This document shows positions 719 through 4,970 of a stretch of DNA of 64,000 nucleotides, in pieces; the stretch's first letter is position 1; every line of letters begins with the position of its first letter. The notes below the pieces were generated by a model. It did no database searches. It was not told the origin of the DNA and saw only the letters and a program-made list of their open reading frames with translations. The stretch lies in NCBI RefSeq assembly GCF_055900595.2, contig NZ_CM148325.1; one strand, 5' to 3'. The position numbers and the translations under genes are program-made.

Positions 719-970
719 ATGTTCCGTTGTCCCCTGTGCGGTGCATCCGCACGTATCCGCACCAGTCGCAATGAAAATGATTCAGGCACAGTTCGCCTGA
801 AGTACTACCAGTGCAATAACCTCGAATGCGGGATCGGCTTTACCACACTGGAGGGTTTTAACAAATTCACATCAAAACGCGCCCCGTCGCCGCAGGGTAC
901 AGAGCGGATACCGTGGGAAGATTTTCCGGGATCTCACAGGGGGAATGCTCAGATGAATCTTGATATTTAA
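719..970 (+). CDS. ogr: Ogr/Delta-family zinc-finger late transcription activator (P2-like phage)
   Basis: 83 aa, Cys4 motif C-x2-C-x24-C-x4-C (CPLC...CNNLEC), AAGGAG RBS 7 nt upstream of ATG, position immediately after gpD. Confidence 0.8.
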   Translation: MFRCPLCGASARIRTSRNENDSGTVRLKYYQCNNLECGIGFTTLEGFNKFTSKRAPSPQGTERIPWEDFPGSHRGNAQMNLDI

Positions 971-980
971 GAACAATAAT

Positions 981-1114
981 CAGGTTGAGAGGACATCATA
1001 AGGCAAGTAGATTAACGGCAGATACTTTCCCGCAACCACGGGCAAGTATTTAATTATCCATGATGAAATATGACCTAAATTGTTTTTTGCCCGCCGGAAA
1101 GCGGGCATTTTTTT
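981..1114 (+). repeat. Partial copy (U0) of a repeated unit, ending in terminator hairpin T0; candidate phage attR / 3' end of an sRNA-like gene
   Basis: Shares ggttgag, agtagattaac, attatccatgat and the terminator with the units at 1626-1783 and 1828-1987. Confidence 0.5.
1088..1114 (+). terminator. Intrinsic terminator-like hairpin T0 (tgcccgc-cggaaa-gcgggca + T7)
   Basis: 7-bp GC stem, 6-nt loop, 7 consecutive T; identical to T1. Confidence 0.7.
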
Positions 1115-1328
1115 ATTCTTTTGTGGTTATGGGGTCATCAGGAACCACGTGCAGATTATATTTTTGTTTTTTTGGCGTTCCTCCGGCAGCAACGAGTTCA
1201 TCAATAAGACACTGACACGCCTGAACATCCCGGGCATGTCTTAGTTTCACCTTTATTGATTTAACCTTATCCTCACCGGAGGAGAAATGCAGTTCAATCT
1301 CAATATCGTTTCTTCGGAACAATCTCAT
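1113..1328 (-). CDS. Hypothetical small protein (71 aa), orphan ORF between repeat copies
   Basis: ORF with G-rich RBS-like tract (caggggggcgt) directly upstream of ATG; no family recognised; stop codon abuts T0. Confidence 0.35.
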   Translation of the reverse strand: MRLFRRNDIEIELHFSSGEDKVKSIKVKLRHARDVQACQCLIDELVAAGGTPKKQKYNLHVVPDDPITTKE

Positions 1329-1554
1329 ACGCCCCCCTGAACATATCAGAAATGCTAGTATCGAAAAATGAGAAAACAGTTAGACAGGAGAAACATATTA
1401 ACACAAATCATTTATACCTATAGATGAAATTATAATTTCATTCATGAATATGATAGATAACTATATTGTGAACAAAATGAAAAATGGCTAAATTAAAAAT
1501 GGGCATGGAGGAATGCCTCGTAATCAGTAATACATGATCCATACTTCCTTGTTT

Positions 1555-1581
1555 TGCCCGCCGGAAAGCGGGCATTTTTTT
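1555..1581 (+). terminator. Intrinsic terminator-like hairpin T1 (identical to T0)
   Basis: Same stem-loop and T7 run as T0; preceded by conserved catgat motif. Confidence 0.7.
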
Positions 1582-2329: not shown

Positions 2330-2394
2330 CTTCAAAAATGGACACTACGTGGACACTGATTAAATAATCCTTTCTTAATCAGACTGTTAAAATG

Positions 2395-2431
2395 CTTGAC
2401 CTTCCCCTTGCTGGAAGGTTTAACCTTTAAC
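2395..2431 (+). promoter_or_regulatory. copA promoter with CueR (MerR-family) operator dyad ccttcc-N7-ggaagg between -35 and -10
   Basis: Sequence cttgaccttccccttgctggaaggtttaacc recognised as the copA/CueR box; AAGGAG RBS at 2454-2459. Confidence 0.85.
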
Positions 2432-2465: not shown

Positions 2466-4970
2466 ATGTCACAAACTATCGACCTGACCCTGGACGGCCT
2501 GTCCTGCGGTCACTGCGTTAAACGCGTGAAAGAAAGTCTCGAACAGCGCCCGGATGTTGAGCAGGCGGATGTGTCTATCACTGAAGCGCACGTTACCGGT
2601 ACTGCCAGTGCAGAACAGCTGATCGAAACCATCAAACAAGCGGGTTATGACGCATCTGTAAGCCACCCAAAGGCTAAACCGCTGGCGGAGTCATCAATCC
2701 CGTCGGAAGCACTGACAGCGGTTTCTGAGGCGCTTCCGGCAGCAAACGCCGATGACGATGACAGTCAGCAGTTGCTGCTGAGCGGCATGAGCTGCGCCAG
2801 CTGTGTTACCCGCGTACAAAATGCGCTGCAAAGCGTACCGGGCGTCACTCAGGCACGGGTAAACCTGGCGGAGCGTACTGCGCTGGTGATGGGCAGTGCC
2901 TCCCCACAAGATTTAGTGCAGGCAGTGGAAAAAGCGGGCTACGGCGCGGAAGCGATTGAAGATGACGCTAAACGCCGCGAGCGCCAGCAGGAAACCGCCG
3001 TCGCTACCATGAAGCGCTTCCGCTGGCAGGCAATTGTCGCTCTGGCGGTAGGTATCCCGGTGATGGTCTGGGGGATGATCGGCGATAACATGATGGTCAC
3101 CGCCGACAACCGCAGTCTGTGGTTAGTTATCGGCCTGATAACGCTGGCGGTAATGGTTTTCGCCGGCGGGCATTTTTACCGTAGCGCATGGAAAAGCCTG
3201 CTGAACGGTGCGGCGACAATGGATACGCTGGTGGCGCTGGGTACTGGCGTGGCGTGGCTCTATTCAATGAGCGTCAACCTGTGGCCGCAGTGGTTCCCGA
3301 TGGAAGCGCGACATCTTTATTACGAAGCCAGTGCGATGATTATCGGTCTGATTAATCTCGGTCATATGCTGGAAGCGCGCGCACGTCAGCGTTCTTCAAA
3401 GGCGCTGGAGAAATTACTCGATTTAACCCCGCCGACGGCGCGCCTGGTCACTGACGAAGGTGAAAAAAGCGTGCCGCTGGCAGATGTTCAGCCTGGTATG
3501 TTACTACGCCTGACGACCGGCGATCGCGTACCGGTAGATGGTGAAATTACCCAGGGCGAAGCGTGGCTGGATGAAGCAATGCTGACGGGCGAACCTATTC
3601 CGCAGCAAAAAGGCGAAGGCGATAGCGTTCATGCAGGTACCGTGGTGCAGGACGGTAGCGTGCTGTTTCGTGCCAGTGCGGTTGGCAGCCATACTACGCT
3701 GTCACGGATCATTCGTATGGTGCGCCAGGCCCAGAGCAGTAAACCGGAAATCGGCCAGTTGGCGGATAAAATCTCTGCCGTATTTGTGCCGGTAGTGGTG
3801 GTGATTGCGCTGGTCAGTGCGGCAATCTGGTACTTCTTTGGTCCGGCACCGCAAATTGTTTATACCCTGGTGATTGCCACTACGGTACTGATTATCGCCT
3901 GCCCGTGTGCGCTGGGGCTGGCAACGCCAATGTCGATTATTTCCGGCGTCGGGCGTGCGGCTGAATTTGGCGTGCTGGTGCGGGACGCCGACGCGCTGCA
4001 GCGCGCCAGTACGCTCGACACCGTAGTGTTCGATAAAACCGGGACGCTGACCGAAGGGAAGCCGCAGGTTGTCGCAGTAAAAACATTTGCTGATGTTGAT
4101 GAAGCGCAAGCATTGCGTCTGGCGGCGGCACTGGAACAAGGTTCCAGCCATCCGCTGGCACGGGCGATCCTCGATAAAGCAGGCGATATGCAGCTGCCGC
4201 AGGTCAACAGCTTCCGTACATTGCGTGGGCTGGGCGTGAGCGGTGAAGCAGAAGGTCATGCGTTATTGCTGGGTAATCAGGCGTTGTTAAATGACCAGCA
4301 AGTCGATACTAAAGCGATTGAAGCAGATATTTCAGCCCAGGCATCGCAAGGGGCAACGCCTGTGCTGCTGGCGGTTGACGGGAAAGCGGTGGCCTTGCTG
4401 GCGGTGCGCGATCCGTTGCGTAACGATAGTGTGGCGGCACTGCAACGTCTGCATAAAGCGGGATATCGTCTGGTGATGCTAACCGGGGATAACCCGACCA
4501 CCGCCAATGCGATCGCCAAAGAAGCAGGGATTGATGAGGTGATAGCCGGCGTGCTGCCAGACGGTAAAGCCGAAGCGATCAAACGTCTGCAAAGTGAAGG
4601 ACGTCAGGTGGCAATGGTGGGCGACGGCATTAACGACGCGCCAGCGCTGGCTCAGGCGGATGTCGGTATTGCTATGGGTGGCGGCAGCGATGTTGCCATT
4701 GAAACCGCGGCGATTACCCTGATGCGCCATAGCCTGATGGGTGTTGCGGATGCGCTCGCAATTTCCCGCGCAACGCTGCGCAACATGAAGCAGAACCTGC
4801 TCGGTGCGTTTATCTACAACAGCATTGGTATTCCGGTCGCCGCCGGTATTTTGTGGCCGTTCACGGGAACACTGCTTAACCCGGTGGTTGCCGGAGCGGC
4901 AATGGCGCTCTCGTCGATTACCGTAGTGAGTAACGCCAACCGGTTGCTGCGGTTTAAACCGAAGGAATAA
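2466..4970 (+). CDS. copA: Cu(I)-translocating P-type ATPase
   Basis: 834 aa; two N-terminal GxxCxxC metal-binding domains, CPC motif, DKTGT phosphorylation site. Confidence 0.97.

Follow-up and report, generated by a model that had tools for sequence, protein, structure and literature searches.

A short ORF beside ogr in a P2-like prophage of Escherichia coli is a truncated member of the PHROG 14142 family

Does a reading frame of 71 codons near the end of a prophage belong to a gene, and if so, to which family of genes, and does it still act through a protein? The window analyzed here, a 64,000-nt stretch of contig NZ_CM148325.1 (RefSeq assembly GCF_055900595.2), carries such a frame on its minus strand, which a first-pass annotation made from the sequence had called an orphan lying between the first two copies of a repeat. 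The basic description is correct: the ORF list gives the same ATG start, 71 aa, positions 1113-1328 and protein sequence, and the two repeat copies that bracket the frame, at 1085-1114 and 1552-1581, are 100% identical. RefSeq catalogues the product as a hypothetical protein, and our literature search returned nothing on this protein or on the PHROG 14142 family, to which we assign it below. The features of the region are as follows.

719-970, plus strand: ogr/delta-type late-gene activator with an Ogr/Delta zinc finger (Pfam), convergent with the ORF
1085-1114, plus strand: left copy of a 30-bp direct repeat, a terminator-type hairpin with T-run
1113-1328, minus strand: the 71-aa ORF, RefSeq WP_001236182.1 "hypothetical protein", ATG start, with homology to PHROG 14142
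1167-1173, minus strand: A7 run in the coding strand, a slippage site
1329-1340, minus strand: last four ancestral codons, S-G-G-R against A-G-V-I in the family, including G6 at 1332-1337
1341-1551, minus strand: AT-rich DNA with no relation to the N-domain of the family; GC is 0.23 at 1351-1500
1552-1581, plus strand: right copy of the 30-bp repeat, a terminator without a promoter
2395-2414, no strand: 20-bp attR core, CTTGACCTTCCCCTTGCTGG, in the copA promoter region, recurring between glsA and int (attL)
2466-4970: copA, after the prophage end

The window starts within a P2-like prophage, with the C-terminus of gpD (Pfam Phage_GPD) at 13-675, ahead of ogr. The opposite end of the prophage was located in strain LH50-c, between glsA and a phage integrase gene, and CTTGACCTTCCCCTTGCTGG is found there (L023 7671-7690), identical to window 2395-2414. 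Core E. coli DNA begins at 2395: positions 2395-2460 are matched in 5415 of the 5426 complete genomes, and the rest of 1987-2465 in only 5. The att core thus places everything from ogr through 2394 inside the element, including the repeat array, the ORF and a further small ORF at 2017-2304, and the ORF of interest sits ~1.07 kb inside the true prophage end. Position 1986, where the relatives at the ihfA site diverge, was considered as the prophage end and rejected on the evidence of the 20-bp core, present both at 2395-2414 and between glsA and int. We take this core to overlap the -35/CueR-operator region of the copA promoter; on the attR side the full promoter sequence is kept from the core onward, and everything upstream is phage DNA. 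Direct repeats of TGGACA(CT) adjoin both ends of the prophage (window 2339-2357; L023 7783-7800) and resemble P2-type Int arm sites.

The ORF together with its upstream DNA (1115-1551) forms a cassette between the perfect 30-bp direct repeats, within an array that also holds three plus-strand units of ~135 nt (983-1114, 1649-1783 and 1852-1986). In each unit a promoter-like TTGAGA-17-TAGATT precedes a body of ~95 nt, which contains a 5' hairpin and an A/U-rich linker, and a strong terminator follows; Hfq-type sRNA genes are built in this way. In 600-2500 no Rfam family scored above its gathering score, and a single compensatory pair was seen among six sRNA-like paralogs; the phage carries these units to all three of its integration sites. 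The left repeat ends sRNA-like unit 1 and possibly ogr transcripts as well. In the serS-site genomes (L003 4477-5850; also L004 and L006) the array is longer, with sRNA-like units alternating with two additional, decayed ORF cassettes and a hok locus; comparison of the arrays suggests growth and shrinkage by recombination at the common 30-bp terminator repeat. The array hairpin TGCCCGCCGGAA (1088-1099) reads C-P-P-E in one frame, which is both the tetrapeptide and the DNA of residues 21-24 in many full-length PHROG 14142 proteins; we considered this resemblance as a link to the att core and left it as probable chance. The second small ORF, at 2017-2304 on the minus strand between the array and attR, has a maximal length of 95 aa (73 aa in RefSeq, WP_029400554.1, hypothetical), and gave no Pfam or PHROG match; a terminator-like element lies at 2295-2326. 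An 89.5% identical version of this module adjoins serS (L003 6297-6701), and hicAB stands in its place in the ihfA-site prophages.

Length alone lends the 71-aa ORF no significance. Markov shuffles of 971-2394 contain 2.3 ORFs of at least 71 aa on average, with at least one in 91% of shuffles, and the real interval contains 5. The ORF is not the only sizeable coding candidate in the repeat region, as it had been described; it is the only array ORF with homology support, and it is this homology, not length, that marks it as coding-derived. The match to PHROG 14142 (E 4.9e-12, 46.9 bits) pairs ORF residues 1-56 with profile positions 72-127 of 128 only, and a profile search gave E values of 2e-15 to 2e-16 for the cluster of the ORF. 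Beyond near-identical E. coli copies, an exhaustive HMMER search reached P0009 (128 aa, Salmonella, aligned at 72-124), P0011 (133 aa, aligned at residues 72-119) and the 57-aa P0010. About 70 related protein clusters are found in Salmonella, Citrobacter, Enterobacter, Klebsiella, Yersinia, Pectobacterium, Kosakonia and others, all of them annotated "hypothetical", so that the term orphan no longer applies. All family members came from prophages, IMG/VR contigs and assemblies; in 50,697 deposited phage genomes, neither tblastn with the ORF and P0040 nor blastn with the region found a match.

The homologous part of the ORF is its residues 1-55, which correspond to residues 72-126 of the 128-133-aa family proteins of Enterobacterales prophages at 44-47% identity to full-length relatives, and the last ~14-15 residues form a non-conserved tail. 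Met72 is invariant in the family alignments and aligns with the start codon of the ORF. All invariant columns (M72, L74, E83, L100, R101, C109 and L112) fall within the C-terminal half, and the ORF retains every one of them, along with most near-invariant residues.

Gene order agrees with this assignment. Full-length P0011 directly adjoins ogr, convergent with it, followed by gpD and tail genes, which is the slot and orientation of the window ORF (L013-15), and Klebsiella-type members (L032-36) have the same arrangement beside ogr. One divergent full-length member, on an IMG/VR contig (L039 1976-3396), is linked to int, not ogr: it has the same strand as an integrase gene that is apparently frameshifted, and lies 14 bp downstream of it. 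With the full-length proteins (e.g. P0009, P0040, P0011; WP_130259648.1, WP_133252896.1) the ORF shares the C-terminal module, the slot between ogr and att, and the orientation convergent with ogr. It differs from them in lacking residues 1 to ~67, the predicted beta-alpha-beta-beta-alpha N-half, and with it the two-part architecture of ~128 aa, and in having a different AT-rich upstream region and a non-homologous tail. Protein and DNA homology both stop four codons 5' of the ATG (S-G-G-R-M versus A-G-V-I-M; caggggggcgtATG versus gcaggggttattATG). No remnant of the family N-half was found upstream of the ORF in any frame; the DNA there is unrelated, with GC 0.23 and stops in all frames. On these alignments the ORF is evidently a 5'-truncated derivative of the family that would use the internal Met72 as its start. 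Since the homology reaches back to the ancestral Ala-Gly-Val codons, the G tract that had been singled out as resembling a ribosome-binding site is a relic of them; the tract itself was rightly seen, as G6 (G5 in some strains) 3 nt 5' of the ATG.

Short forms of 57-67 aa are known to us from other elements (P0010 on a P4-like satellite; P0060 and P0064 at E. coli prophage junctions). They resemble the ORF in the Met72 start, the module and the 5' loss, but have their own breakpoints and end at residue 57 without the extra tail. In the P4-like satellite (L009; int, AlpA, Ash, epsilon and primase, then the 57-aa gene P0010) homology reaches back to about residue 48-58, and in L016 and L021/L022 it ends at codon 44/45, the flanks being prpB in one case and ihfA in the other. 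Judging by these breakpoints, the other short forms evidently arose independently. Some "57-aa" gene calls (L017) turned out to be complete 128-codon frames with a GTG start. The two independent E. coli junctions, L016 versus L021/L022, have a common breakpoint, codon 44/45 (TTGCTTCTC), which lies ~170 nt 5' of the 57-aa gene; this coincidence hints at site-specific or hotspot recombination, possibly at an int/att module boundary.

Among 5426 complete E. coli genomes, only 30 contain the block consisting of ogr, repeat, ORF and repeat, distributed over three chromosomal sites:

copA: 5 genomes
ihfA/hicAB: 4 genomes
serS/hok: 21 records

Because the same block occurs together with ogr at three sites, the ORF is phage cargo. 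What lies between the array and att depends on the site: one has hicAB, another hok, and copA the 2017-2304 module. The ogr-attP interval is therefore a variable cargo region, and in related prophages hok, hicAB and yafO are among the neighbouring cargo. The suggestion that the ORF is a moron at a prophage end survives in that a small accessory ORF, AT-rich relative to its surroundings, lies near the end and was carried by the phage to three sites; its orphan status falls away. Like the classical P2 morons (old, tin, fun/Z) and P2/P4 hotspots, it is AT-rich non-essential cargo with presumed expression signals of its own, in a variable interval, beside hok/hicAB. Those morons have no sequence relation to the ORF. 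On the P2 map, the old/tin and fun/Z loci differ from the ogr-attP interval.

The stop codon of the ORF (1113-1115) does meet the first terminator, as had been reported, overlapping the final two T of the hairpin and T-run at 1088-1114, but that terminator serves the plus strand only: on the strand of the ORF the hairpin is followed by A-runs with no U-tract, and the terminator scan lists the plus strand only. No sigma-70-type promoter on the strand of the ORF passed the promoter scan. The AT-rich segment at 1341-1551 is ~84% conserved in paralogous cassettes and includes a fully conserved block that contains TATAAA; we infer that it is presumably the promoter and 5' leader of the short gene. 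Most full-length genes have GAGG or GGGG 5-6 nt before Met72, formed by rare GGG/AGG codons, in clades only about 54% identical; in the most divergent clade the motif lies 14-16 nt from Met72. This Shine-Dalgarno-like (SD-like) motif is suggestive, being compatible with a natural internal start.

Searches for a function were made with the ORF and with its full-length relatives. Pfam, NCBIfam and PADLOC scans of both gave no match; with PADLOC there was nothing at E<=1 for the ORF, P0009, P0010 or P0011, which places none of them among known anti-phage defence proteins. An AlphaFold family model from 47 sequences (pLDDT 77.5, pTM 0.72; an earlier model from 21 sequences, with pLDDT 51, was unusable) has the full-length topology beta-alpha-beta-beta-alpha-beta-beta-alpha-beta, a generic alpha/beta sandwich, of which the ORF would retain the end of helix 2, strands 4-5, helix 3 and strand 6. 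This half-chain may need the N-half to fold. Foldseek against the PDB returned only weak matches, e.g. tandem ACT or KH proteins, at E >= 0.04; a BFVD structure search returned nothing, and a PDB sequence search with the family profiles nothing significant. The name "RuvC family protein" in one RefSeq record (WP_133252896.1) was set aside, as neither NCBIfam/Pfam at E<=10 nor the fold searches support it. A DinI/Tum lead was likewise dropped (hhalign probability 0.13%, E 0.45, against an approximate DinI sequence); DinI is absent from the structural matches. Tum and Tum72 of coliphage 186, which we take to be nested long and short products that are DinI-like, serve as an analogy only: the likeness lies in a possible long product with an in-frame, internally started short product of ~57-72 aa and in the beta-alpha-beta-beta-alpha N-half, whereas there is no sequence relation and the genome position is another. 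The one functional statement that the sequences permit is that the product would be a soluble protein module of the accessory kind, with a helix of the pattern K-L-R...C..L and an acidic strand, R-N-D-I-E-I-E, that is conserved.

On balance, and by a modest preference, we regard the ORF as a small accessory gene of the P2-like prophage, a stand-alone C-terminal module of PHROG 14142 kept by selection; with the same modest confidence we infer, as to translation and present-day activity, that this shortened cassette served as a translated small gene and probably continues to do so. The main rival, appreciably less probable though by no means negligible, is a functionless relic, namely a pseudogene fragment that lost its 5' end and was left beside attP by module exchange; the ATG and the G tract would be accidental survivors, and the frame would still be open only through its shortness and a fairly recent event. 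The missing N-terminal half suits such a relic, as do the truncations that recur att-proximally in several lineages, as recombination rather than selection predicts, the narrow distribution, and the failure to detect a promoter or terminator for the minus strand. It also draws on the state of the copies. In the paralogous cassettes at the serS site, one copy is replaced after codon 24 and the other is broken by in-frame stops and by deletions of 8 bp and 2 bp, so that redundant copies in the longer arrays are, by their sequences, evidently decaying; close variants alter family-invariant or near-invariant residues (R30T = R101, D8N = D79, N7K = N78); and the ORF and its upstream non-coding DNA are equally diverged, about 16% each. 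A +1 slip to A8 has occurred in strain Ch1 (whose copy PGAP left unannotated) and in the P0003 cluster. Against decay, however, these frameshift alleles keep the whole conserved module and lose only the non-conserved tail, the 57-aa product ending in PKKTKI having the canonical family length, and the ORF itself has an intact frame with all family-invariant residues and about 45% identity to full-length relatives. The decayed paralog copy 3 has the truncated architecture in common with the ORF, and its AT-rich leader is about 84% identical, so that the differences between it and the window ORF arose after the truncation. Between the two, 16 of 34 substitutions are synonymous, where 9.0 +/- 2.4 are expected from random placement with the same transition/transversion mix (P=0.004; the other frames give 9 and 8), a signal of 34 substitutions that includes time before copy 3 died; NG86 dN/dS is 0.28 at dS 0.47. 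This synonymous excess after truncation means that the short form was under protein-level selection. The first-pass annotation had held that frame disruption in closely related copies would speak against a gene. Disruption is indeed found, as frameshift, stops and deletions, but the frameshift spares the conserved module and the substitution pattern is one of past purifying selection.

The remaining readings are all improbable, to differing degrees. The functional unit could be DNA or RNA, with an unterminated minus-strand transcript, antisense to sRNA-like unit 1 and ogr, dampening late-gene activation in the lysogen, or with the AT-rich region as a protein-binding architectural element. In its favour, ogr and the ORF converge, the strand of the ORF lacks a U-tract terminator, and among paralogs the AT-rich block upstream equals the ORF in conservation and includes a 27-nt invariant stretch; but selection at the codon level is seen specifically in the frame of the ORF, the att core proper and the Int arm-type repeats are about 1 kb away, and there are no Rfam family matches, all of which make such a unit improbable. 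Less probable again is a toxin-antitoxin component or a transcriptional regulator, the roles that the first-pass annotation had floated from the position at a prophage end. The presence of hok, hicAB and yafO in related prophages lends this some plausibility, yet the ORF list shows no partner ORF in the cassette (1115-1551), the protein is not hydrophobic, unlike type I toxins, and the family model, which resembles only generic ferredoxin/ACT-like sandwiches, contains no HTH or other DNA-binding fold and no toxin fold; nor is there a Pfam or NCBIfam match to an HTH, RHH or zinc finger, or a PADLOC match, in the ORF or its full-length relatives. There is thus no sign that the ORF is a toxin, antitoxin, regulator or known defence protein. 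A chance ORF that never coded for protein is least probable of all and is refuted: ORFs of such length are expected by chance in 971-2394, but the significant homology to a conserved family lies in exactly this frame.

Returning to the small accessory gene, we envision that an ancestral gene of ~128 aa lay between attP and ogr, convergent with ogr, and that unrelated AT-rich DNA would have taken the place of its 5' part, from the promoter through codon ~67. Translation would now begin at the internal Met72, with the G-rich tract of the ancestral Ala-Gly-Val codons as ribosome-binding site, to give a soluble peptide of ~55 conserved residues (predicted beta-beta-alpha-beta) and a dispensable tail. 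The product would have stayed under purifying selection after the truncation, and on that ground it most likely continues to work as a protein in the lysogen, probably binding a partner via its conserved face. A bolder idea, which we offer tentatively and consider rather unlikely, is that PHROG 14142 genes are nested and yield two products, the 128-aa protein and a 57-aa C-terminal protein started at Met72 behind the conserved, in-frame SD-like motif. The recurrent 5'-truncated alleles, including this ORF, would then be natural short-product-only versions that carry the active module of an unrecognised accessory factor, expressed in lysogens and encoded in the ogr-attP cargo hotspot of P2-like phages and P4-like satellites.

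The ORF is, in sum, an ordinary prophage accessory gene in truncated form, catalogued but uncharacterised. That a supposed orphan becomes a placed, truncated member of a catalogued prophage family matters little by itself. It does show the ogr-attP interval of this P2-like lineage to be a cargo hotspot, holding hok, hicAB, the sRNA-like units and the PHROG 14142 family, and if the short module is active, it would offer a compact handle on what the family does in lysogens.
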